Assembly (NCBI GenBank): GCA_026386845.1
Contig: JAPLMW010000039.1
Span: 1 to 61,881, forward strand
Length of the DNA: 61,881 nucleotides
Direction of reading: 5' to 3'
From: Phycisphaerae bacterium
Lineage (GTDB): Bacteria; Planctomycetota; Phycisphaerae; Sedimentisphaerales; UBA12454
The translations under genes were made by a program, and so were the position numbers. The stretch's first letter is position 1. Each line of letters starts with the position of its first letter. Below, piece by piece: positions 1 through 60,453 of the stretch. The notes under the pieces were generated by a model. It saw only the letters and a list, made by a program, of their open reading frames with translations, did no database searches and was not told the DNA's origin.

Positions 1-647
1 TGCTGGCTGTCGGCAAAAAGCCGATGATTTACTATCCCATTGAGAAACTTATTTCAGCGGGAATAGAGGAAATTCTCATCGTAACCGGCATCGACCATAT
101 GGGCGATGTAGTAAACCTGCTTGGTTCGGGGAAAAATTTTTCCTGCCGTTTTACTTACAAAGTCCAGGACCAGGCCGGCGGTATCGCCCAGGCGCTTGCC
201 CTTGCGGAAGATTTCGCAAAGAACAGCGGACTTGTAGCAATTCTCGGCGATAACATTTTCAAGGCTTCTTTAAAACCTTATCTGCAAAAATTTTCAAATC
301 AGAAAAAAGGAGCAAGAGTCCTGCTCAAACAGGTTGAAAACCCGCAGCGATTCGGCGTCGCTGAAATTGCGGACAATAAAGTAACTTCCATTATCGAAAA
401 ACCAAAAAATCCGAAAACAAATTATGCCGTAACAGGCATATATTTTTATGATAACACCGTCTTTGACATAATCAAAATATTAAAGCCTTCCGGCCGAGGC
501 GAACTTGAAATCACCGATGTCAATAACGCTTATATCAGCCGAAACCAGCTCGAATATGATATTCTTGCCGGCTGGTGGACGGACGCCGGAACATTTGAAT
601 CGCTTAACACTGCAAATGAATTAGTTATTAAGGAGCCTGTCGAATGA
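1..647 (+). CDS. rmlA: glucose-1-phosphate thymidylyltransferase-like sugar nucleotidyltransferase (5' end outside window)
   Basis: The frame is open from the window edge (LAVGKKPM...). Nucleotidyltransferase motifs GGIAQAL, ILGDNIF, EKPKNPK..YAVTGIYFY and GELEITD are present. It is the first gene of an rmlA-C-D-B cluster. Confidence 0.8.
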   Translation, partial: LAVGKKPMIYYPIEKLISAGIEEILIVTGIDHMGDVVNLLGSGKNFSCRFTYKVQDQAGGIAQALALAEDFAKNSGLVAILGDNIFKASLKPYLQKFSNQKKGARVLLKQVENPQRFGVAEIADNKVTSIIEKPKNPKTNYAVTGIYFYDNTVFDIIKILKPSGRGELEITDVNNAYISRNQLEYDILAGWWTDAGTFESLNTANELVIKEPVE

Positions 648-955
648 CAAGTCCCGTTAGACCTCTTTGGTTTTATACTTATGTTTTAATATGCGAAAAA
701 ACAGGGACACTCTATACTGGTTGTACCAAAAATTTAAGGCAGCGAATGGAACAACACACTAAAGGTTTGGTTTATTACACAAAATACAGATTACCGGTTA
801 AGTTAATTTATTCTGAGGCTTGTTTGAACAAAGATGATGCTTTTCGCAGGGAAAGATATTTAAAAACAGGAATGGGCAAAAGATATCTTAAAAATAGGTT
901 AAAAAGATGTCGGACGACCATAAATGCCTTATCTAAAGGAGGTCTAACGGGATGA
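644..955 (+). CDS. GIY-YIG nuclease family protein (COG2827/YhbQ-like, 103 aa)
   Basis: N-terminal FYTYVL..GTLYTG (GIY...YIG) followed by RRERYLK. The ATG overlaps the rmlA stop (ATGA 644-647) and the TGA overlaps the rmlC start (ATGA 952-955). Confidence 0.85.
   Translation: MTSPVRPLWFYTYVLICEKTGTLYTGCTKNLRQRMEQHTKGLVYYTKYRLPVKLIYSEACLNKDDAFRRERYLKTGMGKRYLKNRLKRCRTTINALSKGGLTG
644..955 (+). mobile_element. GIY-YIG cassette with 13-bp terminal inverted repeats and ATGA direct repeats
   Basis: CCCGTTAGACCTC (653-665) and GAGGTCTAACGGG (939-951) are perfect inverted repeats. ATGA occurs at both borders. Removing 648-955 restores an rmlA/rmlC ATGA overlap. Confidence 0.55.
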
Positions 956-1476
956 AAAAAATCGCGGAACTGAAAAGAGTTTTTTCTGAAGGTTCGATTA
1001 TCATTATAGGTTCAGCCGGCCTGATTGAAGGCGTCAAGGCAAAAACTGTAAAAATTCTTCCGGATGAACGAGGCAGGCTTGGCGAAATCCTGCGAGCAGA
1101 TGACGAAATGTTCGAAAAATTCGGCCAGGTTTACTTTACGACAACATATCCGGGAATGGTAAAAGCCTGGCATTGGCATAAAAAACAGACCGACTATTTC
1201 TATGTTGCCAAAGGCACGGTAAAAGTAGCCCTCTACGACCAAAGAGACGGTTCAAAAACCAAAGGCTCTGTCAACCAGATTTATATGAGCGAGCATTGTC
1301 CCGCCGTTTTAAGGATTCCGCCCGGCATCTGTCACGGCTGGATGTGTGTAAGCGCCGATGAAGCTTATATCATCAATATACCGACAGAATGTTACAATTA
1401 CAGTCAGCCGGATGAATTCAGAATCCATCCTCACGACAACGACATACCTTACGATTGGACGCGAAAAGATGGATAA
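952..1476 (+). CDS. rmlC: dTDP-4-dehydrorhamnose 3,5-epimerase family (RmlC-like cupin)
   Basis: Cupin motifs DERGRLGEI, WHWHKKQTDYFYV.KG and PPGICHGW. It lies between rmlA and rmlD. Confidence 0.7.
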   Translation: MKKIAELKRVFSEGSIIIIGSAGLIEGVKAKTVKILPDERGRLGEILRADDEMFEKFGQVYFTTTYPGMVKAWHWHKKQTDYFYVAKGTVKVALYDQRDGSKTKGSVNQIYMSEHCPAVLRIPPGICHGWMCVSADEAYIINIPTECYNYSQPDEFRIHPHDNDIPYDWTRKDG

Positions 1477-2323
1477 AATTGTCCTGCTCGGCGCAAGAGG
1501 AATGTTCGGCTCTGAAATTTACAATCTCTGCGCCAAATGCCGTAAGGCATCCCCTAGCGGAGATAATATAACGCCTCTCGACCTGCCCCAATTTGACATC
1601 ACCGACAAAAATATGCTCGAAAAAGTTCTACAGGACGCAAATGTCGTTGTCAACTGCGCAGCCTATACCAATGTGGAAAAGGCTGAAAGCCAGTCTGAAC
1701 AAGCTTTTAAAATAAATGCCGAAGCTGTAGGCAATCTTGCCAAAATTGCTCATAACAAAAATATTTACGTTATTCACATAAGTACCGATTTTGCATTCGA
1801 CGGCAAAAAAGAAACTCCTTATCTCGAAACTGACCGCACTAATCCAATAAACGTTTACGGCAAAAGCAAGCTCGAAGGCGAAACGCTTTTGGCGAAAAAC
1901 CATAATCGCTACGCTATAATTCGTGTTCAGTGGACTTACGGCAAAAACGGAAATAATTTTATAACCAAACTTATTTCACTTTCCACCCAGAAAGAAAATT
2001 TGAAAGTCGTTGACGACCAGTTTGGCTCTCCCACCTGGACACAGGAGGCGGCAAAAGTTATCCGCGAATTTATCTCTAAAAAACCGCAGGGTCTGTTTCA
2101 CTTCGCGGCTGCCGGTTTTGCGAGCCGGTATGATGTGGCGAAATTCGCCTTTGAAAAACTGAAAATAAGCACTCCCGTCATCCCCTGCAAATCGAGCGAA
2201 TTTCCAACCGTTGCCGCCAGGCCTGCCAGCAGCAGGTTCTGTTGTGATAAAATACAATCTTTGCTTGACAAACCGATTGAATTGTGGCAAAAACCGCTTG
2301 AAAGGTTTCTAAAAACGTTATGA
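1469..2323 (+). CDS. rmlD: dTDP-4-dehydrorhamnose reductase
   Basis: MDKIVLLGARGMFGSE Rossmann N-terminus and YGKSKLEGE (YxxxK). ATG 1469 overlaps the rmlC stop. The ORF-track start at 1358 was rejected because it overlaps rmlC. Confidence 0.85.
   Translation: MDKIVLLGARGMFGSEIYNLCAKCRKASPSGDNITPLDLPQFDITDKNMLEKVLQDANVVVNCAAYTNVEKAESQSEQAFKINAEAVGNLAKIAHNKNIYVIHISTDFAFDGKKETPYLETDRTNPINVYGKSKLEGETLLAKNHNRYAIIRVQWTYGKNGNNFITKLISLSTQKENLKVVDDQFGSPTWTQEAAKVIREFISKKPQGLFHFAAAGFASRYDVAKFAFEKLKISTPVIPCKSSEFPTVAARPASSRFCCDKIQSLLDKPIELWQKPLERFLKTL
1538..1561 (+). repeat. 24-nt module TGCCGTAAGGCATCCCCTAGCGGA, in frame within rmlD (CRKASPSG)
   Basis: 23 of 24 nt identical to 20324-20347, which sits inside an intergenic hairpin repeat. 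Confidence 0.7.
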
Positions 2324-2431
2324 ATCCCGCACCTTCAAATATTCAAGTGATTTTGAAGAGCCGGAAGAATAATCGGATGGGAATATCAATAATATGAAAC
2401 GCAGATTAAAAGAATATAAAGAAGGTGCGGG
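2324..2431 (+). mobile_element. MITE-like element, family 2 (CCCGCACCTTC/GAAGGTGCGGG TIRs)
   Basis: 11-bp perfect TIRs at 2326-2336 and 2421-2431. Flanked by ATGAAT (2320-2325) and ATGAAA (2432-2437). A homologous copy is at 38164-38273. Confidence 0.65.
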
Positions 2432-3445
2432 ATGAAAAGGATTCTTGTTACAGGCGGCGCGGGCTTTATAGGCAGCAATTTTGTAAGATGGATTCTTACA
2501 GAGCAGCCTGATTGCTTCATTGTCAATCTCGACAAACTCACTTATGCCGGCAATCTCGAGAACCTCGAAGGCTTTCTCAAGCACCCCAACCATATCTTTG
2601 TCAAGGCAGACATAAATGACGGCAAAACAGTTGAGGAAATAATAGACAAACACAAAATTCAGACAATTATAAACTTCGCTGCCGAAAGTCACGTTGACCG
2701 TTCAATCACAGGTCCCAAAATTTTCATAGAAACCAACGTAACCGGCACGCTCACTCTGCTGCAGGCTGCCTGCGACAAAAAAATCGAACGCTTTATTCAG
2801 ATTTCAACCGATGAGGTTTACGGCCAGCTCGGCCCAACCGGCAAATTCACTGAACAAACTCCTCTATCTCCTAATTCGCCGTATTCAGCGAGCAAGGCGG
2901 CCGCAGACCTTCTTGTAAAAGCCTTTGGACATACGTGGGGGCTGAATTACAGCATAACTCGCTGTTCAAATAATTACGGCCCGTTCCAGTTCCCTGAAAA
3001 AATGATTCCACTGATGATAAACAACGCCCTCAATGACAAACCCCTGCCTGTTTACGGCGACGGCCTGCACGTCCGCGACTGGATACACGTCGAAGACCAC
3101 TGCAAAGCAATATGGAAGGTTCTTGCTGAAGGAAAGAGCGGCGAAACCTACAACATCGGCTCATCCTGCGAAAAGCAAAACATTGAAGTTGTAAAAACGA
3201 TATTGAAATTGCTCAAAAAACCCGAATCGCTCATAACGTTTGTCAAGGACCGTCCCGGCCACGATAAGCGATATGCGATGGACTCTTCAAAGATTAATTC
3301 GCAGCTTGGCTGGCAATCGCTGATAAATTTTGAAGATGGTTTAAAAAAGACAATAGACTGGTATCTGCAAAACAAAAAGTGGCTCAGCCGTATAACAAGC
3401 GGCCAGTATCAGCAATACTATCAGCAGATGTATGCCAATAGATAG
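2432..3445 (+). CDS. rmlB: dTDP-glucose 4,6-dehydratase
   Basis: MKRILVTGGAGFIGSNF, STDEVYG and YSASKAAAD (YxxxK). Length is 337 aa. Confidence 0.95.
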   Translation: MKRILVTGGAGFIGSNFVRWILTEQPDCFIVNLDKLTYAGNLENLEGFLKHPNHIFVKADINDGKTVEEIIDKHKIQTIINFAAESHVDRSITGPKIFIETNVTGTLTLLQAACDKKIERFIQISTDEVYGQLGPTGKFTEQTPLSPNSPYSASKAAADLLVKAFGHTWGLNYSITRCSNNYGPFQFPEKMIPLMINNALNDKPLPVYGDGLHVRDWIHVEDHCKAIWKVLAEGKSGETYNIGSSCEKQNIEVVKTILKLLKKPESLITFVKDRPGHDKRYAMDSSKINSQLGWQSLINFEDGLKKTIDWYLQNKKWLSRITSGQYQQYYQQMYANR

Positions 3446-14386: not shown

Positions 14387-14435
14387 TAATCGGTTAAAAA
14401 ATAGAATGAATAAAGGCCTAACTTAAGGGGGATGA

Positions 14436-14542
14436 ATCCCGTTAGACCTCTCTGGCTTACAAAGGTGTTCAAAGATATGGAAAGACATGTAAACTTTATA
14501 TTGTATAAATAACTTAAAAATAGGTTAGTGAGGTCTAACGGG
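14436..14542 (+). mobile_element. MITE-like deletion derivative of the GIY-YIG cassette (family 1)
   Basis: It has the same 13-bp TIRs (14438-14450 and 14530-14542). It shares the MNPVRPLW opening and the 15-nt CTTAAAAATAGGTTA (14513-14527, matching 887-901). It is flanked by ATGAA at 14432 and 14543. Confidence 0.65.
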
Positions 14543-14776
14543 ATGAAAAAATTACAAATACTCGGAACAGGCTGCCCCAAGTGCAAAAAACTTGCCGAAT
14601 TTGCTGAAACCGCAGCAAAAGAACTTGGTATTGAGTATGAAATTGAGAAAGTTACAAAGATTAATGATATAATGAAGTTCGGCGTTATGGTAACGCCCGC
14701 TCTTGTCGTTGATGGAAAAGTAAAAGTCGCCGGCAAAGTGCCTTCAATTGAAGAATTGAAGAATATGCTGAAATGA
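14543..14776 (+). CDS. thioredoxin-fold redox-active disulfide protein 2 family (77 aa)
   Basis: MKKLQILGTGCPKCKKL carries the CxxC motif. ATG 14543 is preferred over GTG 14528, which lies inside the repeat. Confidence 0.85.
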   Translation: MKKLQILGTGCPKCKKLAEFAETAAKELGIEYEIEKVTKINDIMKFGVMVTPALVVDGKVKVAGKVPSIEELKNMLK

Positions 14777-15818: not shown

Positions 15819-16516
15819 TGCAGCAATTATTTGAAAATCTGACTCGCGCCGTCGAAGGCACGGCTTTAATCGCCCTTGCCGCTTCTTTTATCTGGGGCAT
15901 TTTGAGCATTTTGCTCAGTCCCTGTCATCTGGCAAGTATCCCGCTTATTGTCGGCTTTATCGACGAACAGGGAAAAATTTCTACAAAAAGAGCTTTCTGG
16001 ATTTCGTTTCTTTTCGCGGCGGGAATACTTATAACCATCGGTCTTGTCGGCGTCATTACCGCTGCTGCCGGAAGAATAATGGGCGATGTCGGCAAATGGG
16101 GCAATTATTTCGTCGCTGTGATTTTCTTTCTTGTCGGCCTTCATCTGCTTGATGTAATCCCTATGCCGTTTTCAGGGCCGGGCTCTGTCGGTATGAAACA
16201 AAAAGGTCTGTTTGCCGCCTTTTTACTTGGTCTGGTCTTCGGCATTGCCATCGGCCCCTGCACTTTCGCTTATATGGCTCCGATGCTGGCCGTTACATTC
16301 AAAGTCGCTTCAAGTAATATCACTTACGGTATCTTGCTTTTGGTTGCCTATGGCATCGGCCATTGTTCAGTAATTGTCCTTGCAGGCACATTTACCGAAC
16401 TGGTCGAGCATTATTTGCACTGGAACGAAAAATCAAAGGGGGCGGTAATCCTCAAAAAAATCTGCGGCGTTCTTGTCCTTGCAGGCGGGCTTTATATGAT
16501 TTATACTGCCCCCTGA
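15818..16516 (+). CDS. ccdA: CcdA family cytochrome c biogenesis / thiol-disulfide transporter
   Basis: LLSPCHLASIPL and IGPCTFAYMAP motifs with six TM helices. Confidence 0.8.
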   Translation: MQQLFENLTRAVEGTALIALAASFIWGILSILLSPCHLASIPLIVGFIDEQGKISTKRAFWISFLFAAGILITIGLVGVITAAAGRIMGDVGKWGNYFVAVIFFLVGLHLLDVIPMPFSGPGSVGMKQKGLFAAFLLGLVFGIAIGPCTFAYMAPMLAVTFKVASSNITYGILLLVAYGIGHCSVIVLAGTFTELVEHYLHWNEKSKGAVILKKICGVLVLAGGLYMIYTAP

Positions 16517-16642
16517 TTTCTCTGATTTCTTAATTATTCGATTATATAACTCCTTGCTTTAATAACTTAAATTTCGTTATTTATGGAATGGTTAAATTAA
16601 ATTCGTTTTATATCTCGTTTTCCTCTGTGTCTCTGTGGTGAA
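16516..16642 (+). repeat. ~127-nt intergenic repeat (ATTTCTCTGA...CGTTTTATATCTC...TTCCTCTGTGTCTCTGTGGTGAA)
   Basis: Homologous along its full length to 23031-23195 and 23208-23337. It ends 6 nt before the MFS start codon. Confidence 0.75.
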
Positions 16643-16648
16643 AAACAA

Positions 16649-17815
16649 ATGGAAAATAATCGTTCATCGGCAATGAGGTTTATTTTGCTGCTGGGAGTCG
16701 TCAGTCTCCTTGCGGATGTAACTTATGAATCGGCACGAAGCCTGGCGGGGCCATATCTTGCTATCCTCGGCGCAAGCGGCGCCGTCGTCGGCATAACGGC
16801 TGGTCTTGGCGAACTGCTCGGCTACGGCCTGCGGTTCTTTTCCGGTCTGCTGAGCGACAAAACCCGGCGGTACTGGCTGATTACCATCATCGGTTATGTG
16901 GTAAATCTGCTGGCGGTTCCCCTGCTGGCGTTGACCCATCACTGGCCGATGGCGGTCGCTTTAATGATAACCGAGAGAATCGGCAAATCCATTCGCACTC
17001 CCGCCCGCGATGTAATGCTCTCTCACGCAACCGCTTCTGTCGGCAGAGGCTGGGGCTTTGCGGTTCACGAGGCTATGGACCAGATTGGCGCAATGACCGG
17101 CCCGGTTATTGTTATGATTGTTCTTGCGATTAGCGGTTCATACCGTTATGCCTTTGCGATTCTGGCAATACCGGCAATTCTGGCAATTATCGTTCTCTTA
17201 ATCGCCCGATTTAATTATCCGCATCCGCAAAAACTTGAAACCAAACAGGCCGAAATCGGCGATGGCAAATTGCCGACGGCATTCTGGATGTATCTGGGAG
17301 CTATCGGACTTGTCGCGGCTGGTTTCGCCGATTATCCGCTGATTGCGTTTCATATTAAACAGAATAATATTTTCGCGGACAAATGGATCCCCCTGCTTTA
17401 TGCCATCGCAATGGGCGTTGACGGCCTTGCCGCTCTGTTGTTCGGCAAATGGTACGATAAAAAGAAACTGCTTTCGCTGGCGACAGCTATAGCGATTTCG
17501 TCTCTCTTTGCGATTTTCGCGTTCTCGCTTTCGCCGATAGCGATTGTTGTTGGAATCTTGCTCTGGTCCGTAGGGATGGGTGCTCAGGAATCTATTATAA
17601 GAGCCGCGGTAGCCGATTTTGTCCCAACGGCCAAACGCGGCACAGGCTACGGTATTTTCAATGCAGGCTATGGTATATGCTGGTTTTTAGGCAGTGCGCT
17701 GATGGGCGTCCTTTATGATTTTTCGCTTGTCTCGCTTATCGCTTTTTCCGTTGTTTCCCAAGCCGCTTCGCTGCCGCTGCTTATCGGCACGCAAAAACAC
17801 TTTGCCGGAAAATAA
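16649..17815 (+). CDS. MFS transporter
   Basis: 388 aa with about 12 hydrophobic helices and a typical MFS layout. Confidence 0.8.
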   Translation: MENNRSSAMRFILLLGVVSLLADVTYESARSLAGPYLAILGASGAVVGITAGLGELLGYGLRFFSGLLSDKTRRYWLITIIGYVVNLLAVPLLALTHHWPMAVALMITERIGKSIRTPARDVMLSHATASVGRGWGFAVHEAMDQIGAMTGPVIVMIVLAISGSYRYAFAILAIPAILAIIVLLIARFNYPHPQKLETKQAEIGDGKLPTAFWMYLGAIGLVAAGFADYPLIAFHIKQNNIFADKWIPLLYAIAMGVDGLAALLFGKWYDKKKLLSLATAIAISSLFAIFAFSLSPIAIVVGILLWSVGMGAQESIIRAAVADFVPTAKRGTGYGIFNAGYGICWFLGSALMGVLYDFSLVSLIAFSVVSQAASLPLLIGTQKHFAGK

Positions 17816-21562: not shown

Positions 21563-21642
21563 TTAGCCGTCGCCGGCACGGCGACGTGTCATTCCCGCGA
21601 AAGCGGGAATCCAGTATATTTAGCCGCCGGTTTTACCGGCGG
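21563..21642 (+). repeat. composite of TTAGCC-hairpin, GTCATT-hairpin-AATCCAG and TTAGCC-hairpin
   Basis: TTAGCCGTCGCCggcacGGCGACG, then GTCATTCCCGCGAAAGCGGGAATCCAG (21588-21614), then TTAGCCGCCGGTtttaACCGGCGG. Confidence 0.7.
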
Positions 21643-21673
21643 TTAGTTATTTTTTAAGTAAAACAGGTGTCTA

Positions 21674-22599: not shown

Positions 22600-22622
22600 T
22601 TCACCACAGAGGCACAGAGGAA
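22600..22622 (-). repeat. 23-nt motif TTCCTCTGTGCCTCTGTGGTGAA (inverted copy)
   Basis: Reverse complement of the 3' ends of the repeats at 16620-16642 and 23315-23337. Confidence 0.7.
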
Positions 22623-22655
22623 TGATAGATCGTATATATTATTAGAAGAGTGAAT

Positions 22656-23030
22656 ATGAAAGATTATGATGAACTGTCCGGCAAGGTTATTGGTTGTGCC
22701 ATAGAAGTCCATCGTGCTCTTGGACCCGGCCTTTTGGAATCTGCCTATGAAAGATGTCTTTCTTTTGAATTATCGGCTAATAATATTCATCATTTAGTTC
22801 AAAAAGAATTGCCGGTAAAATATAAGAATATTGAACTTGACTGCAATTACAGAATTGATTTCCTTATTGAGGACAAATTAATCGTCGAATTAAAGTCTGT
22901 TGATGCAATTTTGCCGATTTATGAAGCTCAGATTTTAACGTATATGAAACTGGCCGGTGTTAGAACAGGCCTTTTAATAAATTTTAATGTTCGTCTTTTG
23001 AGAGACGGCATACAAAGATTCGTTTTATAA
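22656..23030 (+). CDS. GxxExxY family protein (PD-(D/E)XK nuclease-like fold)
   Basis: GPGLLESAYERCL matches the GxxExxY motif. Length is about 125 aa. Confidence 0.85.
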   Translation: MKDYDELSGKVIGCAIEVHRALGPGLLESAYERCLSFELSANNIHHLVQKELPVKYKNIELDCNYRIDFLIEDKLIVELKSVDAILPIYEAQILTYMKLAGVRTGLLINFNVRLLRDGIQRFVL

Positions 23031-23337
23031 ATTTCTCTGAGTTCTTAATTATACGCTGGTATAACTTCTGACTTTAACTAATGTGAGTCTCGTTTTTTTA
23101 TGAAATGGCTTTAAAAAATTCGTTTTATATCTCATTTTTCTCTGTGTCGGAGTTTACCCCGTGAGATGTCGCAGTTATCTCATCGGGGTGGTGAAAAATA
23201 TTTTCTAATTTCTCTGAGTTCTTAATTATACGCCGGCATAACTCCTGGCTTTAATTAATATAAGTCTCGTTTTATTATGAAATGGCTTAAAAAAAATTCG
23301 TTTTATATCTCATTTCCCTCTGTGTCTCTGTGGTGAA
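23031..23337 (+). repeat. two tandem copies of the ~130-nt repeat (23031-23195 and 23208-23337)
   Basis: Both copies align with 16516-16642. The first carries a 41-nt hairpin insert, CCCCGTGAGATG..ATCTCATCGGGG (23148-23188). Confidence 0.75.
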
Positions 23338-24028
23338 TAATATAAAAAAAATTCTCGTTGCGACAACAAATCCCGGCAAACTGAAAGAAATTTCAGAAAT
23401 GCTGGATTTCGATATTACCTGGTTAAGTCTCAAAGACTTTCCTGGCATCAAAGAAATCGAAGAGGACGGTAAAACCTTCGCTGAAAACGCTCGGAAAAAA
23501 GCTCTCGGCTACGCAAAACAAACAAATCTCTGGACGCTCGCCGATGATTCAGGTTTGGTTATCGATGCCCTCGGCGGCGCGCCCGGCGTAACAAGCGCAA
23601 GATTCAGTTTAGCCCCCACCCCTGTGGTGGGGGTTAGCCCCGCCAACACTTTGGCGGGGTCACAATCTAAAAATAGAACTCTCCTTGACCACAAGAATAT
23701 GGCCAAGGTTTTAACTCTGCTCAAAGATGTTCCCAAACAAAAAAGAACAGCCAGGTTTGTCTGCTGTTTATGTCTTGCCTGCCCTGAGCCTGTCGAAGGG
23801 GCAAGTCCCCAAAAAGTTTTGATTGAAACAGAAGGAAAACTCCAGGGTATTATCGCTGAAAATCCTGCCGGCAGCAATGGTTTTGGTTATGACCCGATTT
23901 TCTTTGTCCCGCAGCTTAAAAAAACCGTCGCGCAGCTCCAATCTGCTGAAAAAAACAATATTTCGCATCGCGGCCAGGCCATAAAAAAACTCAAACCACT
24001 TCTTCAAAAACTGCTTGAAACAAATTAA
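23330..24028 (+). CDS. rdgB: RdgB/HAM1 family non-canonical purine NTP pyrophosphatase with in-frame repeat insertions
   Basis: ATTNPGKLKE, TARFVC, FGYDPIF and SHRG motifs. The GTG start at 23330 is uncertain. Confidence 0.85.
   Translation: MVNNIKKILVATTNPGKLKEISEMLDFDITWLSLKDFPGIKEIEEDGKTFAENARKKALGYAKQTNLWTLADDSGLVIDALGGAPGVTSARFSLAPTPVVGVSPANTLAGSQSKNRTLLDHKNMAKVLTLLKDVPKQKRTARFVCCLCLACPEPVEGASPQKVLIETEGKLQGIIAENPAGSNGFGYDPIFFVPQLKKTVAQLQSAEKNNISHRGQAIKKLKPLLQKLLETN
23609..23659 (+). repeat. two tandem TTAGCC-hairpin units in frame within rdgB (17 codons)
   Basis: TTAGCCCCCACCcctgtGGTGGGGG followed by TTAGCCCCGCCAAcactTTGGCGGGG. The second unit is near-identical to the intergenic copy at 33028-33053. 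Confidence 0.75.
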
Positions 24029-26567: not shown

Positions 26568-27148
26568 TTGGAAAAAAGCAGCTGCAGCAGCAGAAGAAAA
26601 ATAGTAAAAGAAAAAACAACTGAAGAATAATAGCAAAAAAAGCAGAAGAAGAAAAAATCTTTGAATCTCCCGCAAGCCGATAACTAAAAATCCTTAGAAA
26701 AATAAATAAAAAAAACGAGCAGTCGCGCCCGGTGAAGAAACGCTAACTGCTCGCAGGAGGAGGAAGAAGAAGATTTCAGTTTTATATATTCACTTTTCTA
26801 TCTATGCTCCTTATCGGCAAAATGTTCAAATTTTCATTAAAGTTTACGAATAAATCAGCCATAAAATCAATACATAATACTTTTTTAAGAAAAATGACTG
26901 TTAAAACAGGGAATTTAAGACTGGACAAACATTTTTAACAATTGTATCGTATTATATTAAAAGAAGTTATGACAAGAGCTAAAAGCAAGCATTCCGGTAA
27001 CATTTGTCTGGAATAATAGCCGAAAAAGTTTAATATATAACAAAAAAGCTGTGAAAAAAGGGGATTGAAGATATAAGATATCCAACTGTAGCCACAAAGA
27101 CACGAAGAAGTAAGGATGTAAAGAAATAGGGAAGCAAAGAAGATTTTT

Positions 27149-27478
27149 ATGAGCCAAGATAAAGAAACAAAAAAAATTGAACCTAGTTCAATAGAAATCG
27201 TCGAACCAGTCGGCAAAAGAGTCCTCATCCGTAAAGATGAAGATAAAAAAATAACCCGCGGCGGTATCAAACTGCCGGATAATATAGAAATACCCACCAT
27301 CACCGGCAGAATAGTCGCAGTCTCCGCTGAAGTAGAAACTATGCCGGAGATGCCATTGAAAAAATACGACAAAGTCCTGTTTAACCCCAAAGGGGCAATA
27401 CCAGTAGATTTCGAAGGCGATAATCGTTTGTTTGTCGTTGAAGTCGAAAACATAGTGGCGGTGTTTAGGAAAGCGTAG
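27149..27478 (+). CDS. co-chaperonin GroES (Cpn10) family protein
   Basis: VEPVGKRVLIRK..RGGIKLPD..GRIVAVS pattern. No groEL lies downstream. Confidence 0.7.
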   Translation: MSQDKETKKIEPSSIEIVEPVGKRVLIRKDEDKKITRGGIKLPDNIEIPTITGRIVAVSAEVETMPEMPLKKYDKVLFNPKGAIPVDFEGDNRLFVVEVENIVAVFRKA

Positions 27479-38052: not shown

Positions 38053-38163
38053 AGTGTCCCCTTTTTAATCTGGATTATCTTCTACGACAATGCTATTATT
38101 AAAATATAAAAATCCAAATTGTCAATAACTCATTAAAATAAGGATTTTAAAGAGAGCCGATGA

Positions 38164-38273
38164 ATCCCGCACCTTCAGATATTCAAATAATAATTTTGAA
38201 GGGTCGCAAGAGTAACCGGCTGAAGATACAATAATATGAAACATATATCAAAAGAATGTAAAGAAGGTGCGGG
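38164..38273 (+). mobile_element. MITE-like element, family 2 (second copy)
   Basis: TIRs CCCGCACCTTC (38166-38176) and GAAGGTGCGGG (38263-38273). Perfect ATGAAT direct repeats at 38160-38165 and 38274-38279. Confidence 0.65.
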
Positions 38274-39185
38274 ATGAATAAAATTCATCCCAATAGATTT
38301 TATCTCGAAGACTATAGGAAGAAACATCACAGATATTCGCGGGACGGTTTCTTCGGGAATCTGAAACGCATCCGCACCTGGTCGTCCCTGATACAGTTTA
38401 TACTGAGGGCGACAGGTCTTGAGCGGCGAGGCCTTGCCAACGCGATGAATATCAGAGTCAACCAGACAGTCGCAGAGTTTGATAATCTGCCGAGTGGTTT
38501 TGAGAACAGCCGCATACTCTTCATTTCTGACTTTCATATCGAACTTATGGCCGGCCTCGTCGATAAAATAATCGAGCTGATAAAAAATCTCGAATATGAC
38601 TACTGTTTTCTCGGCGGCGATTACAGTACCTTCGACAAATTCGATATGGACAAGACAAAACAGGGAATGAAAAAAATTGCGGAACATCTCAAAACCAATC
38701 GGACTTACGGAGTAATCGGCAATCATGATTATTACGAAACGGCCGTCTTTCTTCAAAGTCTCGGCGTAACAATGCTCATAAATGAAAATACAGTGATTGA
38801 ACGCGATGGCGCAGCGATTTATCTTGCAGGCGTCGATGACGGCTATATTTTTGATTCAGCCGATATAGGCCGGGCATCTGCCGGCATTCCGGCAGGAGCT
38901 TTTAAAATTCTCCTGTCGCACAGCCCGCAGATTTACAGGCAGGCCCAGAAGGCGGGTTTTAACTTTTTTATGGCCGGCCATACACACGGCGGCCAGATTT
39001 GTCTGCCGGGCGGAATACCATTATTCAAGTCCGCTAAGGCACCGGGAAAAATCGCAAAAGGCCTGTGGCAATATAAAACCATGACCGGTTTTACGTCCAC
39101 CGGCGCCGGCTGCTGTAATGCCGCGGCAAGGTTCTTTTGCCCGCCGGAAATCGCTGTTTTGACCCTCAAAATGAAAAAATCATAG
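38274..39185 (+). CDS. metallophosphoesterase
   Basis: SDFH, GGDY, GNHDYYE and AGHTHGGQ motifs. Confidence 0.85.
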   Translation: MNKIHPNRFYLEDYRKKHHRYSRDGFFGNLKRIRTWSSLIQFILRATGLERRGLANAMNIRVNQTVAEFDNLPSGFENSRILFISDFHIELMAGLVDKIIELIKNLEYDYCFLGGDYSTFDKFDMDKTKQGMKKIAEHLKTNRTYGVIGNHDYYETAVFLQSLGVTMLINENTVIERDGAAIYLAGVDDGYIFDSADIGRASAGIPAGAFKILLSHSPQIYRQAQKAGFNFFMAGHTHGGQICLPGGIPLFKSAKAPGKIAKGLWQYKTMTGFTSTGAGCCNAAARFFCPPEIAVLTLKMKKS

Positions 39186-46420: not shown

Positions 46421-46520
46421 AGAAGAAATGATAACAAAAGAATTAGAAAAGTCGATAGTTGATAGTTGCTGGTCGCTGGTGAAAGGAAGCAAGGAAATAA
46501 GGAGGTAAGGAAGCAAAGAA

Positions 46521-46557
46521 ATAAGGAAAAGAAAGGCCGAGGCAAACAGACTCGGCC
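46521..46557 (-). terminator. candidate intrinsic terminator
   Basis: GGCCGAG (46535-46541) pairs with CTCGGCC (46551-46557). On the minus strand it is followed by TTTCTTTTCC. Confidence 0.5.
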
Positions 46558-46722: not shown

Positions 46723-48033
46723 CTAATTACACTGTAGCCACTCACCTGCCATAATGGCAAAGTCCCTAAAATCTACGAAGCAATTGTTGTCTATGTCGCC
46801 GATGGGACATACCTTGTTAAATATATACGCCGATCCGGAATCGGTGCCGTTGGCGTGATCTAAATAAGACCCCACAATGGCATAATCGCCGCTGATAGAA
46901 GCACCAAGGCCAAAGCAGTCATAGGGGGCGGCACCATCTGAGGCAATCAGCTTTTTTCTCTGCACCCAGGTTTGACCGTCGCGCTGGAAAATATATGCCG
47001 AGCCGGTAAAGCTGTTTTCGTAAGAAGCGCTCACGATGGCATAATCGCCGCTAATTGAAACCGTGTGTCCAAAGCCATCTCTACTGTCGGTGCCATCTAA
47101 CTTTTGCTGCTCAAGCCAGCTCGTCCCATCCCACTTGAATATATACGCCTTGCCGGATTCGGTTCCATTGTCATAGAATATAGCTCCCACGATGGCGTAA
47201 TCGCCGCTGATAGAAACACCATGGCCAAAGTTATCACCCGCAGCGCCATCTGAGGCGGTTAGCTTGGCAATCTGGTCCCAGTTGTTGGGGTCGACATCAT
47301 TGGGTTCAAATATATACGCCGAGCCGGAATTGGTTCCATTGTCATCATCCCTCAACGCACCTACAATAGCACGGTCGCCACTGATAGAAACAAGGCCAAA
47401 TTGGTCTCCGGCGGCGGCATCTGAGGCGGTCAGCTTGCACTGCTGGTACCAGTTGGGATCGCCCGGTGTAACGCTTTTCTTAAATATATATGCAGAACCG
47501 GAGTCACTTCCATTGTCATCATCGTAATTCGCCCCCACGATTGCCAAATCACCACTGATAGAAACCCGTACGCCAAATTGGTCTCCGGCGGCGCCATCTG
47601 AGGCGGTTAATTTGTCCTGCTGGACCCAGCTCGTCCCATTCCACTTGAATATATATGCCTTGCCGGCGCCACCGTTGTAATGCTGATACGCCCCCACAAT
47701 AGCATAGTCACCGCTGATAGAAACAGAAGTTCCAAAGTGGTCATCGGAGGCGCCATCTGAGGCGGTTAGCTTGGCAATCTGGTCCCAGTTGTTGGGGTCG
47801 ACATCATTGGGTTCAAATATATACGCCGCGCCAGAATCGCTTCCATTGTCATCATCCCCATACGCACTCACAATAGCACGGTCACCACTGATAGAAACGG
47901 AAGCTCCAAAGTGGTCATCGGAGGCGCCATCTGAGGCGACCAACTTATCCTGTTCGGGCCAGTGAGCTTGAGCTTCATTCAAAAAAACAAAAGACACAAT
48001 AACCATCGACATTATCAACACCATCTTTTTCAT
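46723..48033 (-). CDS. secreted FG-GAP repeat (beta-propeller) protein with a dockerin-like C-terminus
   Basis: Signal peptide and about seven repeats of KLTASDGA..D.FG.SVSISGDYAIVGA..D..GS.SGSAYIF. The C-terminus is GDIDNNCFVDFRDF. Confidence 0.8.
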   Translation of the reverse strand: MKKMVLIMSMVIVSFVFLNEAQAHWPEQDKLVASDGASDDHFGASVSISGDRAIVSAYGDDDNGSDSGAAYIFEPNDVDPNNWDQIAKLTASDGASDDHFGTSVSISGDYAIVGAYQHYNGGAGKAYIFKWNGTSWVQQDKLTASDGAAGDQFGVRVSISGDLAIVGANYDDDNGSDSGSAYIFKKSVTPGDPNWYQQCKLTASDAAAGDQFGLVSISGDRAIVGALRDDDNGTNSGSAYIFEPNDVDPNNWDQIAKLTASDGAAGDNFGHGVSISGDYAIVGAIFYDNGTESGKAYIFKWDGTSWLEQQKLDGTDSRDGFGHTVSISGDYAIVSASYENSFTGSAYIFQRDGQTWVQRKKLIASDGAAPYDCFGLGASISGDYAIVGSYLDHANGTDSGSAYIFNKVCPIGDIDNNCFVDFRDFAIMAGEWLQCN

Positions 48034-50663: not shown

Positions 50664-51085
50664 GTCATTTCGAGCGGAGGCCTCGAAGAGGCCGAAGCCG
50701 AGAAATCTATTAAAAAACGTTCTTTACGAATATTATTCATACCAGCCATCGCTTAAGTCTTTCCAGTCGGGATTCATCGAGTCAATAATCGCAACCTTTT
50801 TCTCCCGTCTCCATTTTTTGATTTGTTTTTCCCGACTAATGGCTGAAATCGGGTCTGATACCCTTTCTACATAAAGTAATCGGTCAATATTGTATTTATT
50901 TGTGAAACCCGGCATTAGATGATTTTTATGCTGATAAACCCTTTTTTTAATGTCATTAGTCATTCCGATATATAAAGTGCCGGTTTTGCTTGACATTATG
51001 TAAACATAATAGTTTTTCATAATCAAATTTTTTAATAGATTTCTCCACTCCGCTCCCCCTAAGGGGTCGCTTCGGTCGAAATGAC
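50664..51085 (-). mobile_element. GIY-YIG gene flanked by 54-58-nt terminal inverted repeats
   Basis: Left arm: GTCATTTCGA...GAGAAATCTATTAAAAAA (50664-50717). Right arm, inverted: TTTTTTAATAGATTTCTC...TCGAAATGAC (51028-51085). Confidence 0.55.
50733..51020 (-). CDS. GIY-YIG nuclease family protein (COG2827-like)
   Basis: YYVYIM..GTLYIGMT followed by SREKQIKKW. ATG 51020 is preferred over TTG 51026. Confidence 0.85.
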   Translation of the reverse strand: MKNYYVYIMSSKTGTLYIGMTNDIKKRVYQHKNHLMPGFTNKYNIDRLLYVERVSDPISAISREKQIKKWRREKKVAIIDSMNPDWKDLSDGWYE

Positions 51086-51102
51086 GGTTTTCAATGGAGC
51101 AA

Positions 51103-51999
51103 TTACCTGTTTAAGGTTTTCCCGGCGGACAATTGCTTTATGACATCAAACAGGGCCTGGGTGCCATCGGAGCCTCTGCCCTGAGTCTTTAATACGGATA
51201 ACAATTCCTTTGCGAGCACAGTGCCCGGCAGGGGCTGATTTATCTTCTCGGCGTATTCGAGAACCAGTTTTAAATCCTTCAACTGCAAATCAACCGAAAA
51301 AGCAGGCTTAAAATCGCCCGCGATAATTTTGGGGCCGAGAGCTTTTAGTGAATGACTGCCCGCGGCACCGGCGGATGTGGCAGCCAATGTAGTATCAAGG
51401 TCAAGGCCGGCTCTTTGAGCAAAGGCAAGACCTTCAGCGACGCTCATAATCGTGTGAATTACCATAACCTGATTGGCAAGTTTCGTTATCTGGCCGAAAC
51501 CCGATGGGCCGCAGTAGGTAATACTCCTGCCCATTACTTCAAAAATCGGCCTGACTTTTTCAACATATTCCTTTGGGCCGCCCGCCATAACTGAAAGCTT
51601 GGCCTGCTGGGCGCCGATTTGGCCGCCGCTGACAGGAGCATCTATCAAAATAATTTTCTTTTCAGCGAGAATTTTCGCCATCTGCTGAGTTTCAGACGGC
51701 GAAATGGTTGACATATCAATACAGATAAGGCCGGGATGAGCTGATTCAATCACGCCGGATTTACCGAGCAGAACCTGCCTTACATCAGGAGTATCGGGAA
51801 CACAGGTTATAACCACATCCGCATCTTGGGCTGCGGCAGCGGGACTATCGGCCCATCTTGCTCCCGCTTTTATAATCTCTTGGGCTTTTGACTTTGTCCT
51901 TGAATGCACAGTCAGGGGAAAACCGGCCTTGAGCAGATTCAAAGCCATTGGTTTGCCCATTATGCCTGTGCCGATAAACGCTATGCGGAAAGCAGACAC
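51103..51999 (-). CDS. NAD(P)-dependent beta-hydroxyacid dehydrogenase (3-hydroxyisobutyrate / 2-hydroxy-3-oxopropionate reductase family)
   Basis: IAFIGTGIMGKPMA Rossmann motif and family-typical length. Confidence 0.85.
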   Translation of the reverse strand: MSAFRIAFIGTGIMGKPMALNLLKAGFPLTVHSRTKSKAQEIIKAGARWADSPAAAAQDADVVITCVPDTPDVRQVLLGKSGVIESAHPGLICIDMSTISPSETQQMAKILAEKKIILIDAPVSGGQIGAQQAKLSVMAGGPKEYVEKVRPIFEVMGRSITYCGPSGFGQITKLANQVMVIHTIMSVAEGLAFAQRAGLDLDTTLAATSAGAAGSHSLKALGPKIIAGDFKPAFSVDLQLKDLKLVLEYAEKINQPLPGTVLAKELLSVLKTQGRGSDGTQALFDVIKQLSAGKTLNR

Positions 52000-52801: not shown

Positions 52802-52918
52802 TTTTATATCCTTAAAATATCATAGTTTCGTTTTTCATCTTTTTTAAGGAAGTAAAGAGATAAAGAGGTAAGGAAGTAAGGAAAAACAATTGAATGCCTT
52901 CCTTGCTTCCTTGATTCC

Positions 52919-54214
52919 TTATTTCCTTATTTCCTTTATACTATTCTGTGCAGCTTTGACTGTTTTTTCAATATCCTTTTTCGAATGTGCTGCGGAAATA
53001 AACATCGCCTCGAACGGACTGGGGGCAAGATATATGCCGTTTTTGAGCATTTGGGCGAAAAACGCCGCAAAAAGCCTTGCATCCGCTGATTTTGCATCGG
53101 CGAAGTCGAAAACAGGCTTTTCAGTGAAAAAACAGCTTAAAAGCGAACCGATACGGTTTATAGTCAATGGAATTGACGCCTGTTTGCCGGCATCGAGCAA
53201 ACCTGTATGAAGCATTTGTGATTTTTCTTCAAGCCGATTATAAAAATTTTTATTTTTCAATAATTTAAGCGTTGCAAGAGCCGCGGCAGTAGCCAGTGGA
53301 TTGCCGCTCAGGGTGCCGGCCTGATAAACGCCCCCTGCCGGCGCCAGCAGGTTCATAATCTCCGCCCTGCCGCCGACGGCTGCGCACGGAAGACCGCCGC
53401 CGATAATCTTTCCCAGGCAGGTCAAATCGGGTTTAACTTTAAATAACTTTTGAGCTCCGCCGAAACAAAGTCTGAAACCGGTTATCACCTCATCAAAAAT
53501 CAAAAGAGATTTATTGTCGCTGCAAAGTTTTCTGAGAGTTTTAAGATAGCCCGGCTTCGGCAAAACAACTCCCATATTCGCGGCAACCGGTTCGATTATG
53601 CACGCGGCAATTTTATTTTTGTATTTCTCAAAAACCTTTGCCGTCGAATCAATATCATTGTAATCAGCGACAATCGTAAGGGCACAAAGAGATTTCGGCA
53701 CACCGGGGCATAAAGGTTTTGAATATTGAGCTGAACCTGAGCCGCTGGAAACGAGCATCGAATCGCTGTGGCCGTGATAACAGCCGGACATTTTTAAAAT
53801 ATAATCTTTGCCCGTAAAAGCTCTGGCAAGTCGCACGGCGGTCATTACCGCCTCTGTGCCGCTGCTGACAAGACGAACTTTCTCAATCGAATCGAAAGCA
53901 TTACAAATAATTTCCGCAACTTCGGTTTCCGCAGCAGTGGGGGCGCCGAAAGACGTTCCCTTCTGTGCCGCTTTTTTTACCGCGGCGATTACCTGCGGAT
54001 GACAGTGGCCGAGTATTAAAGCACCCCATGAACATACATAGTCAATATACTCGTTGCCGTCGATGTCGTAAATTTTCGAGCCGCTGCCTTTTGCAATAAA
54101 AACAGGACTGCCGCCGACGTTTTTAAACGCCCTTACAGGCGAATTAACCCCGCCGGGGATAAAACGAGCGGCTTTCGTAAACTGCTTTTTGGATTTCGTA
54201 AATTCCATATTCAA
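52919..54214 (-). CDS. hemL: glutamate-1-semialdehyde 2,1-aminomutase
   Basis: FIPGGVNSPVRAF plus a class-III aminotransferase body. Confidence 0.95.
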   Translation of the reverse strand: MNMEFTKSKKQFTKAARFIPGGVNSPVRAFKNVGGSPVFIAKGSGSKIYDIDGNEYIDYVCSWGALILGHCHPQVIAAVKKAAQKGTSFGAPTAAETEVAEIICNAFDSIEKVRLVSSGTEAVMTAVRLARAFTGKDYILKMSGCYHGHSDSMLVSSGSGSAQYSKPLCPGVPKSLCALTIVADYNDIDSTAKVFEKYKNKIAACIIEPVAANMGVVLPKPGYLKTLRKLCSDNKSLLIFDEVITGFRLCFGGAQKLFKVKPDLTCLGKIIGGGLPCAAVGGRAEIMNLLAPAGGVYQAGTLSGNPLATAAALATLKLLKNKNFYNRLEEKSQMLHTGLLDAGKQASIPLTINRIGSLLSCFFTEKPVFDFADAKSADARLFAAFFAQMLKNGIYLAPSPFEAMFISAAHSKKDIEKTVKAAQNSIKEIRK

Positions 54215-59588: not shown

Positions 59589-59680
59589 CCCGCACCTATT
59601 CAATATTCAATTACATCCGCCCCGCAGCACGTTGCAGCGGGGTTCTATTCAACTTTATATATAATAAATAGGTGCGGTGG
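59589..59680 (-). mobile_element. MITE-like element (variant TIR CCGCACCTAT/ATAGGTGCGG) at the recR start codon
   Basis: The minus strand reads ATGAA-CCACCGCACCTAT...ATAGGTGCGGG-ATGAAT(recR). The ATGAA direct repeats are at 59685-59681 and 59588-59584. Confidence 0.55.
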
Positions 59681-59685
59681 TTCAT

Positions 59686-59731
59686 CCCACACCTTCTTTC
59701 TATTCTTATTTTATCGCTTTTTCAAAATAAT
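59686..59731 (-). mobile_element. 3' half of a family-2 MITE fused to the end of the HNH-AP2 gene
   Basis: The minus strand reads ATTATTTTGAAAAAGCGATAAAATAAGAATAGAAAGAAGGTGTGGG. This aligns with the last ~46 nt of the elements at 2324-2431 and 38164-38273. Confidence 0.5.
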
Positions 59732-60453
59732 GCAATCTTCAATTTTTCGGTTAGCCCCCGGACCTGCCTGTCCGACGAAGTCTTTACGAAGGCGGATGCC
59801 GGGGGGCAGACGCCGCTTGCGGCGTCTTTTATGATGACGGGGTTTTCAGGGAAATTCAAAACTGCGAATTCTCCATAGTATTTCTTTGCCGCCTCGTCAT
59901 AGGCCCTTGCCGCTTCTTCTTCGGTATCGAATGAGCCTAATCGTATGGCTGTTCCGTTATATTTTATGCCTGCGCGCCATTTTCTATCACAGTTTCTTTT
60001 GCTTACCCCTTTATATTTTGAGCTTGCAGGCCTTTTTCTTTTTTTACAGTTCATATTATTTTGTTGGATTGTCCCGATTCGCAGGTTCTGTTTTATATTA
60101 TTTAGTCCTTCTCCGTCTATATGGTCAACGACGAGCCTTACCCCGCCCTGAGCGCGGTCGAAGGGGGGAGCGTTCATAATTACACGGTGCATCGAGATAA
60201 TTTGTCTTCCTTCAAGGCGCACCACATAGCGTCCTCTTTCTTTGTCGTATAGTTGCCAGTTATATTCGGCCAATTTTTGATAATCGTCCGGGTCAACGAT
60301 GGTATAGCGGTATTTGGAAATTGTTTCTTTATCTTTGATTAGTTTGATGCGTCTGAATGCTATTCCGTAGCGTTTTGTTCTATAGCGCAGGAGAAAATAG
60401 ACAATGATGTTTTCTATAAAAGCCGGCACTTTAATTTGAAATTTTAAATACAT
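59722..60453 (-). CDS. HNH endonuclease with an AP2 DNA-binding domain
   Basis: HNH_3-like VVDHIDGEGLNNIKQNLRIGTIQQNNMN. AP2-like YKGVSKRN..WRAGIKYNG..IRLGSFDTEEEAARAYDEAA. The C-terminal ~35 aa are encoded by hairpin repeats. Confidence 0.8.
   Translation of the reverse strand: MYLKFQIKVPAFIENIIVYFLLRYRTKRYGIAFRRIKLIKDKETISKYRYTIVDPDDYQKLAEYNWQLYDKERGRYVVRLEGRQIISMHRVIMNAPPFDRAQGGVRLVVDHIDGEGLNNIKQNLRIGTIQQNNMNCKKRKRPASSKYKGVSKRNCDRKWRAGIKYNGTAIRLGSFDTEEEAARAYDEAAKKYYGEFAVLNFPENPVIIKDAASGVCPPASAFVKTSSDRQVRGLTEKLKIALF

Follow-up and report, generated by a model that had tools for sequence, protein, structure and literature searches.

The window analysed here is the 61,881-nucleotide contig JAPLMW010000039.1 of a Phycisphaerae bacterium of the Sedimentisphaerales (assembly GCA_026386845.1). 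Near its left end lies the operon rmlA-rmlC-rmlD-rmlB, and a mobile insert (window 2325-2436) interrupts the ATGA overlap of rmlD and rmlB, exactly on the rmlB start codon. The features of this junction, in which family A denotes the repeat type of the insert and ORF an open reading frame, are the following.

1358 to 2323, plus strand: rmlD (TIGR01214, 2.4e-80), with its stop TGA at 2321-2323
2320 to 2324, plus strand: left copy of the target ATGAA, containing the old rmlB ATG (2320-2322, now the mini-ORF start), overlapped by the rmlD stop TGA (2321-2323)
2320 to 2397, plus strand: mini-ORF MNPAPSNIQVILKSRKNNRMGISII of 25 codons (2320-2394) followed by the stop TGA 2395-2397, a remnant of the nuclease frame described below
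2324 to 2336, plus strand: left terminal inverted repeat ATCCCGCACCTTC, 13 bp, translated as NPAPS
2325 to 2432, plus strand: the non-autonomous family-A element itself, 108 nt long (T-CCCGCACCTTC...GAAGGTGCGGG-A), with ends as in the GIY-YIG elements
2421 to 2433, plus strand: right terminal inverted repeat GAAGGTGCGGGAT, 13 bp
2432 to 2436, plus strand: regenerated start ATG (2432-2434) and right TGAA copy (2433-2436), the A of the start codon being supplied by the element
2432 to 3445, plus strand: rmlB, dTDP-glucose 4,6-dehydratase (TIGR01181, 3e-148)

The family match of rmlD begins only at codon 40 of its ORF, so that the true start is probably near 1470, in line with the gene calls of L205. 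An exact-sequence look-up with the rmlB of the window returned no record.

Counting one TGAA copy, the inserted DNA amounts to 112 nt. The original prediction, made from the letters alone, had placed here a MITE-like insert (MITE: miniature inverted-repeat transposable element) between ATGAAT (2320-2325) and ATGAAA (2432-2437), with perfect 11-bp terminal inverted repeats (TIRs) CCCGCACCTTC (2326-2336) and GAAGGTGCGGG (2421-2431). These coordinates were exact; the 11-bp repeats are present, within a full inverted repeat that reaches 13 bp with the adjoining AT...AT. The predicted 25-codon mini-ORF starting at the left ATG was found with its internal stop, and gave no protein family match. The left repeat reads CACCUUC as RNA and is anti-Shine-Dalgarno-like. 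As had been noticed, the right repeat carries the Shine-Dalgarno-like sequence GAAGGTG (2421-2427), 6 nt 5′ of the regenerated rmlB ATG. The element strand folds into a terminal stem and a second stem ATATTC/GAATAT (-20.2 kcal/mol as DNA, z = -4.6; z = -3.2 when folded as RNA). No Rfam family was detected in the whole window at gathering thresholds, nor in region 2200-2560 at E ≤ 1. With at most one mismatch, the 11-mer repeat occurs five times in the window, as compared to 0.83 expected, and none of 100 shuffles reached five.

The rml operons of relatives were collected by a protein-guided scan of metagenome contigs with rmlB. In what follows, L-numbers denote loci of other genomes or metagenomes obtained from the scans and P-numbers denote proteins. 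The empty site predicted from removal of the element, AAAACGTTATGAAAAG (core ATGAAAAG, AAAACGTTATGAAAAGG), is present in L108, L111 and L116. A plain ATGA overlap of rmlD and rmlB was observed in L108 (...AAAACGTTATGAAAAGA...) and L111, whose rmlB proteins are 90% and 89% identical, and also in the more distant relatives L115-L129. The same position is occupied by a family-A element in L109, L110, L022 and L205, with interiors that hardly align with that of the window, and by a 276-nt GIY-YIG gene with another repeat type (family B) in L113. The rmlB genes of L113 and L022 share 95.5% of their nucleotides, yet one follows a GIY-YIG gene and the other a family-A MITE. At the rmlA/rmlC junction, an uninterrupted ATGACAAAAAAAATCGC or a near variant was found in L108-L111, L113, L116 and L118, and the insertion of the window (644-955) recurs in L205. 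Both rml junctions are empty in L111, which like L205 is among the closest relatives, and both are filled in the window and in L205. Empty, MITE-filled and gene-filled alleles at one junction therefore reflect recent gain, loss or replacement and rule out a conserved leader, which was the outcome that the proposed comparison of rmlD/rmlB junctions in relatives had been meant to distinguish.

In two further loci (L112:2990-3010 and L114:775-795), rmlB begins ATGAATAC[G/C]AAAAG and is two codons longer than at the empty site ATGAAAAG. These starts are possibly an excision footprint, in which the loss of CCCG...CGGG would have left ATGAA-T-A-TGAA, followed by point changes.

Family-A copies were then sought in one genome per species, using a query made only of CCCGCACCTTC, 75-105 nt and GAAGGTGCGGG, with unspecified flanks. 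At least 107 loci were retrieved. The carriers are Planctomycetota (Sedimentisphaerales, Phycisphaerae), Omnitrophota, some unclassified metagenome-assembled genomes (MAGs) and a few other groups. In agreement with the expectation that copies elsewhere would adjoin start codons, this flank-blind scan yielded mostly ATGAA...RTGAA at gene starts. The right end forms an ATG or GTG opening an ORF of at least 50 codons in 82 of 113 repeat pairs, and of at least 100 codons in 71, where the 113 pairs include both window copies and gene starts were called solely by ORF length. Some 30 of the 113 matches are not start-codon copies; they comprise chance matches in GC-rich coding DNA (L007, L021, L107), tRNA-like sequences of Patescibacteria, a TAAA-flanked subfamily and a TTGA-flanked class.

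Junctions were compared among the 65 copies whose left side reads ATGA[A/G]Y. Of these, 60 have TGAA/TGAA flanks, two TGAG/TGAG and three TGAG/TGAA. Minor classes have TCAA/TCAA (equivalently TTGA) and TAAA/TAAA flanks, mirrored on both sides. The duplicated unit, originally taken as ATGA, is usually TGAA, and the first base of the start codon, A or G, comes from the element. The end bases of the element covary (T/A in 39 copies, C/G in 25, C/A in one), showing that the choice of ATG or GTG as regenerated start is set by the element and not by the host. In 26 of the 65 copies, the left TGA serves as the stop of an upstream ORF of at least 60 codons, as compared to 1 and 4 in the control frames. 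Therefore, ATGA junctions like that of rmlD/rmlB are a common home of these elements. The insertion leaves the upstream stop intact and recreates the downstream start, and since a TGA stop overlaps the new ATG or GTG, an ATGA junction becomes ATGA-element-ATGA.

Some of the loci deserve separate mention. The Patescibacteria matches (L001, L034, L037, L048, L051, L053, L056, L064) lie off start codons and contain tRNA-like AGCTCAG and GAGCTATCTCGGC. TTGA/TTGA copies (L089:4432-4539, L009:7146-7253, L065:1469-1567, L023:5171-5277) sit in the sigma-70-promoter-like context TTGAC(N16-18)TAnnnT, where duplication of the -35-like box preserves the box. Minimal hairpins made of the two repeats and a 3-6-nt loop (e.g. 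TGAATCCCGCACCTTTAATAAGGTGCGGGATGAA) were found at L104:5956-5990, L105:3231-3265, L094:2815-2850, L011:5002, L049:981 and L061:3346-3375; they are often nested within other copies and resemble the short SRM-type repeats known from other bacteria. Tandem arrays also occur: at L204:1576-1600 ATGAATCCCGCCCC..., with which a fourth repeat type begins, directly follows a family-A gene, and at L004:5942-6165 a copy of a third type immediately precedes a family-A copy. In the plasmid collection there was a single match to the elements, weak and unannotated, and two scans of viral contigs yielded no copy.

The outermost bases of the insert had been said to be shared with a GIY-YIG family. This is indeed the case, at window 644-955 and 14432-14547. 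The first of these, found via a search for family-B repeat pairs, lies between rmlA (24-647) and rmlC (952-1476), with ATGA overlaps at 644-647 (rmlA stop) and 952-955 (rmlC start), so that two consecutive junctions of the rml operon are occupied by such elements. The elements of the window other than that at rmlD/rmlB are listed below.

644 to 955, plus strand: full-length family-B GIY-YIG element, 103 codons, MTSPVRPLWFYTYVL...SKGGLTG, PF01541, 86% identical to the L113 protein
653 to 663 and 941 to 951, plus strand: family-B repeats CCCGTTAGACC and GGTCTAACGGG of the preceding element
14432 to 14547, plus strand: family-B deletion derivative ATGAAT-CCCGTTAGACCTC...GAGGTCTAACGGG-ATGAA, at the start of an MTH895/ArsE thioredoxin-like gene (14543-14776)
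38160 to 38278, plus strand: second family-A copy ATGAAT-CCCGCACCTTC...GAAGGTGCGGG-ATGAAT, at the start of a YaeI-like phosphoesterase gene (38274-39185)
59589 to 59679, minus strand: third type, repeats CCGCACCTATT / AATAGGTGCGG with an internal GC hairpin, at the recR start (ATG 59588-59586)
59686 to 59721, minus strand: family-A right-end remnant (…AAGAATAGAAAGAAGGTGTGGG), followed by ATGAAC

In their autonomous form, these elements consist of a gene of 276-312 nt, the frame of which fills the element and encodes a GIY-YIG nuclease of 91-103 residues with a single domain (Ssn/UPF0213-like). The frame opens at the host ATG and crosses the left repeat (read as MNPAPS in family A and as MNPVRP in family B), the nuclease domain and the right repeat (read as EGAG or GLTG); its stop is the TGA contained in the right TGAA copy, which overlaps the regenerated host start. 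In the family-B gene of L113, for instance, the frame opens at the left ATGAAT, CCCGTTAGACC is translated as NPVRP, and GGTCTAATGGGATGA (GLMG, stop) closes the gene with a TGA that overlaps the rmlB ATG. Homologues of its protein number 1188 at E ≤ 1e-5; among 120 listed, 82 begin MNPVRP and 95 end GLTG, indicating that both inverted repeats are translated. The genes of these homologues overlap the downstream gene by 4 nt (ATGA or GTGA). In L192, where it sits between genes for MNT and HEPN proteins, the gene overlaps its upstream neighbour as well.

For family A, a search of cluster representatives led to P0179 (MNPAPP...GEAG), the relatives of which include P0278 and P0280, proteins of 96 residues each with a PF01541 domain (MNPAPS...EEGAG and MNPAPS...KEGAG). 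The genes of P0278 and P0280 (L204, L200) have the general form ATGAAY-CCCGCACCTTC...GAAGGTGC[G/T]GG-RTGA and make 4-nt overlaps with both neighbouring genes: L204:1289-1579 reads ATGAAT-CCCGCACCTTC...GAAGGTGCGGG-ATGA, and L200:1841-2131, located between the genes of an ABC ATPase and of the corresponding permease, reads ATGAAC-CCCGCACCTTC...GAAGGTGCTGG-GTGA. The family-A copies of the window align with the first ~100 nt of such genes, e.g. TTTTGAAGAGCCGGAAGAATAATCGG with TTTTAAAGAGCGATAAGCATAAATGG, while window 14432-14547 aligns with the first ~100 and the last ~20 nt of a family-B gene (L113, L188). These alignments indicate that all of them are internal-deletion derivatives. By its sequence, the rmlD/rmlB element is a MITE derived by deletion from a GIY-YIG element with identical ends (L204, L200). 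The first description as MITE-like was therefore apt for a non-autonomous copy and incomplete as to its parent, a one-gene GIY-YIG element. Longer partners with the same ends (L204, L200) encode this nuclease, not a recognised transposase, and the repeat type covaries with the nuclease clade.

The properties of the nuclease were examined next. Pfam detected PF01541 only, with no second domain. Among solved structures, the UPF0213 proteins 1zg2 and 1ywl come closest. An AlphaFold model of P0280 (pLDDT 79) has a beta-beta-alpha-beta-alpha-alpha GIY-YIG core that matches 1zg2 best, then Slx1, UvrC-N and I-TevI; in this model the tails encoded by the repeats (residues 1-9 and 93-96) lack structure. 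The catalytic-type columns Tyr, Tyr, Arg, His and Glu are invariant in both families. P0033 is 35% identical to the protein of a separate, repeat-flanked GIY-YIG gene of the window (50736-51020). Pairs of family-B genes gave proportions of synonymous differences (pS) of ~0.75, at saturation, and of non-synonymous differences (pN) of 0.17-0.21; with L200 and L204, pS was 0.92 and pN 0.25 in a protein-guided alignment containing indels. Low pN at saturated pS argues that purifying selection maintains the nuclease genes, which are not cargo in decay. As judged from sequence and structural model, the encoded protein is a functional GIY-YIG nuclease.

We also considered how the elements are accommodated by the translation of the host genes. 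A Shine-Dalgarno-like GAAGGTG (family A) or GGAGGT (family B) is located 6-8 nt upstream of the regenerated start. In the full-length elements, the nuclease frame uses host translation signals and has an ATGA/GTGA overlap with the host gene. Such a stop-start overlap is a standard arrangement for translational coupling. The lengths of the 65 family-A MITEs are skewed modulo 3 (35/19/11), 35 of them being congruent to 2. Among these 35 in-frame copies, 24 are open to the overlapping RTGA stop, as compared to 2.5 expected from shuffles of the interior. This shows that the read-through frame is selectively retained in the MITE copies.

A mechanism may be proposed along these lines. The two repeats would pair in single-stranded DNA (ssDNA), and the nuclease would recognise the stem and cut at its foot, beside TTCAT/ATGAA. 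Ends could then be joined through a staggered-cut duplication, through an IS200/IS605-like mechanism with an element-borne 3′ TGAA, or through microhomology-mediated copying. By analogy with the Ssn nucleases, the GIY-YIG nuclease would mobilise copies in trans. A full-length element would borrow the Shine-Dalgarno sequence and ATG of its host gene, which would get back a start and stay translationally coupled. In the case of the window copy, ribosomes initiating at 2320 would melt the left arm (codons 2-6), thereby freeing the rmlB ribosome-binding site in the right arm.

Overall, we favour, with a probability of about 0.75, the view that window 2325-2436 is a MITE of a tiny element whose sole gene encodes a 91-103-residue GIY-YIG nuclease that would mobilise the copies in trans. 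The further proposal of an undescribed class of prokaryotic mobile elements, in which an Ssn-like nuclease would be the mobility enzyme, a single frame would be bounded by translated repeats, insertion would occur at start codons or ATGA junctions and the start would be handed back, has in our opinion an even chance of being right. As to the target, ~14 of the ~62 genes of the window start with ATGAA according to a rough gene model, and five of these carry an element, while none of the other ~150 ATGAA or ~700 TGAA sites of the window is occupied. These figures are in favour of a real start-codon preference.

Several points weigh against this view. Start-codon enrichment may be partly or wholly a matter of survivorship. 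Of the common start-codon-targeting insertion initially suggested, the target and the ends are indeed common to the GIY-YIG family, and start codons may be either actively targeted or simply the places where insertions survive. Orthologous insertions were counted in several MAGs, so that the copies are not independent and the statistics are inflated. Junctions are not uniform: besides the three TGAG/TGAA copies, five copies have only TGA in common. The MTSPVRP copies (window 644, L205, L206) show an ATGAC-N-AGT left junction, that of window 644 being ATGACAAGT-CCCG and not a clean TGAA repeat. The mini-ORF of the window copy ends 34 nt before rmlB and does not preserve termination-reinitiation coupling. 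The family-A nuclease gene is found only in other organisms (11 proteins), the window containing a family-B nuclease only. The minimal family-A hairpins fail the SRM consensus HGTCWY..RNCYNB, both strictly and with G/T relaxation, whereas the controls, namely the Neisseria NTS consensus sequence and an NTS-type hairpin of the window (21587-21614), pass. Movement of the element by the nuclease is argued from analogy. GIY-YIG enzymes hydrolyse DNA and are not known to carry out strand transfer. Finally, a 4-nt direct repeat is a hallmark of DDE transposases.

A first alternative is microhomology-mediated copying without transposase, following stalling or nicking at the hairpin, with template switching or break repair via the ATGAA flanks of the donor, and a nuclease that at most nicks. 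New sites would inherit the donor flank, and ATGAA(A) starts would be hit as the longest and commonest microhomology. Such a process fits enzymes that lack strand-transfer chemistry, the variable lengths and imprecision of the junctions, the common flank of often 5 nt (ATGAA), its inheritance within the TAAA, TCAA and TGAG subfamilies, and the tandem or nested copies at regenerated ATGAA (L004, L104/L105, L204, window 59589-59721). In contrast, copies of the C/G type have only TGAA in common, their right-hand start being GTG, and strong purifying selection together with the tight coupling of nuclease and repeat implies an essential role of the nuclease in the spread. We consider this alternative unlikely.

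A second alternative supposes that the insert is a common MITE whose movement depends on a DDE-type transposase gene at another place (e.g. IS1380/piggyBac-like), with the GIY-YIG frame as a passenger in some copies. The mostly fixed length of the direct repeat (TGAA in 60 of 65 copies) and its mirrored variants (TGAG/TGAG, TCAA/TCAA, TAAA/TAAA) are what such an enzyme would produce. PiggyBac and IS1380 elements have CCC...GGG tips and a 4-bp T-N-A-A duplication, and so resemble the present ends. However, in more than 100 homologues of two families both ends of the GIY-YIG frame fall within the repeats, which is hard to reconcile with the status of a passenger. Moreover, a search of 0.82 Mb of loci from repeat-carrying genomes revealed no larger element with these ends: the repeat pairs 300-4000 nt apart with matching 4-mers each proved to be two separate MITEs on either side of a gene. 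The covariation of repeat type and nuclease clade also speaks against a passenger, and irregular junctions are unusual for DDE chemistry. A DDE origin of the IS1380/piggyBac type was abandoned, as these loci yielded no gene in its support and the GIY-YIG partners took its place; an external DDE transposase is in our view decidedly improbable.

Lastly, a host leader controlling rmlB in cis, as an upstream ORF or attenuator hairpin and not as mobile DNA, would account for the mini-ORF and for the strong stem sequestering the ribosome-binding site, but the site is empty in relatives with an 89-90% identical rmlB protein (L108, L111) and the same sequence precedes unrelated genes in several phyla with no Rfam match at E ≤ 1, which reduces this explanation to almost nothing.

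Coming back to the nuclease-borne element, its closest counterparts are the Ssn nucleases, which bind a hairpin in ssDNA and cleave only ssDNA, on a single strand, some nucleotides 5′ of that hairpin (Chenal et al. 2025, Nat Commun, PMC11893778). They accept a stem built from two separate halves, and an insertion-sequence-like NTS-ssnA-NTS layout has been remarked on, with mobility not demonstrated (PMC11893778). As with Ssn (~94 residues), a single-domain GIY-YIG protein (about 90-100 residues here) is physically tied to multi-copy hairpin repeats, and the Neisseria NTS box GTCAT-TCCCGCG resembles the bottom strand TTCAT-CCCGCACC of the present elements. Unlike in the Ssn/SRM systems, the gene lies here within one split hairpin with a frame including both arms, the site is a start codon or ATGA junction with regeneration of the start, ~100-nt deletion derivatives exist, and empty and filled alleles demonstrate mobility. 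Our survey of the literature, of incomplete coverage, yielded no account of start-codon insertion by elements of this kind, the Ssn paper being the only related one; in the literature the repeat strings occur only as unrelated primers.

Ssn-like features are also found elsewhere in the window. Three hairpins resembling repetitive extragenic palindromes cluster at 21566-21650; the central hairpin, TGTCATTCCCGCGAAAGCGGGAATCCAG (21587-21614), agrees exactly with the Neisseria NTS/SRM consensus. A separate GIY-YIG gene of 95 residues (50736-51020, PF01541; region 50693-51110, minus strand) lies between inverted repeats with GTCATTTCGA[C/G]CG; it shows the SRM-gene-SRM layout known for Ssn and is not on a start codon.

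With classical MITEs (Correia/NEMIS, RUP, MITEAba12), the elements share a short length, TIRs, a direct repeat, many copies, the lack of a transposase gene and a longer parent, and the rmlD/rmlB element fits the descriptive definition of a MITE. They differ in that their partner encodes a GIY-YIG nuclease and not a DDE transposase, and in that they insert on the start codon itself, supply the start base and a Shine-Dalgarno sequence and retain a read-through frame. The REPIN/RAYT and IS200/IS605 palindromes similarly comprise hairpin repeats that co-evolve with, or are spread by, a small nuclease gene flanked by the same hairpins, with a plausible ssDNA mechanism and a short specific target. 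Those systems however use HUH/Y1 enzymes and have subterminal hairpins and no duplication. An identity with REPIN or with the palindrome-associated elements (PATE) of IS200/IS605 was rejected because the partner gene encodes a GIY-YIG nuclease and no HUH enzyme.

The seg genes of T4-like phages are likewise GIY-YIG genes wedged between host genes and expressed via host signals (PMC2988022). Seg proteins have an extra DNA-binding domain and home to one cognate allele by recombination, in contrast with the TIRs and many unrelated sites found here. A classical homing endonuclease gene was discarded on account of the single domain and the many unrelated sites. Rickettsia palindromic elements are mobile and tolerated inside translated regions by keeping the frame; they insert within genes and add peptide segments. 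The present elements differ from them by a start-codon site and by translation as a separate coupled ORF.

If the nuclease is indeed the mobility enzyme, the Ssn ssDNA nucleases would gain a biological rationale as mobility genes of minimal selfish elements, a GIY-YIG-based mechanism would join the short list of bacterial DNA transposition modes, and the hairpin repeats found in abundance with Ssn in other bacteria would be the most reduced descendants of such elements. The strategy would be nearly harmless: having landed on a start codon and made use of the host translation signals, the element gives back a fresh start and ribosome-binding site, coupling included, which would account for the hundreds of copies tolerated inside operons. 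Annotation would be affected, with starts shifted by ~110-310 nt, ATG changed to GTG, spurious MNPAPS/MNPVRP mini-proteins and tiny 'excinuclease ABC subunit C' or 'putative endonuclease' calls in Planctomycetota and Omnitrophota MAGs. Nuclease-repeat pairs of differing specificity (CCCGCACCTTC, CCCGTTAGACC, CCGCACCTATT, CCCGCCCC) would be candidate programmable ssDNA tools.

Among the other elements of the window, the family-A copy at 38160-38278 has an orthologous filled site in L093, and the same subfamily occurs at other genes in L006 and L018. The third-type element (59589-59679) was inserted into the ATGAA regenerated by the neighbouring family-A remnant. This remnant abuts the stop of a 243-residue HNH_3 + AP2 protein (59722-60453, minus strand) that looks like a free-standing homing endonuclease.

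A PD-(D/E)XK gene (PDDEXK_3, GxxExxY) at 22603-23338 is bounded by 21-bp inverted repeats TTCACCACAGAGGCACAGAGG. Partial 3′ copies of it (16513-16664, 23028-23148, 23205-23359), which end ...CTCTGTGGTGAA, lie just 5′ of genes starting at 16649 and 23330. Together, gene and partial copies look like another family of a nuclease gene and its derivatives at gene starts. Purine-rich repeats with an 8-nt period (AAGGAAGC AAGGAAAT AAGGAGGT ...) occupy three intergenic sites, in both orientations (27088-27150, 46475-46545 and 52846-52937). Finally, a 436-codon ORF on the minus strand (46723-48033) consists of diverged tandem repeats of ~159-174 nt.

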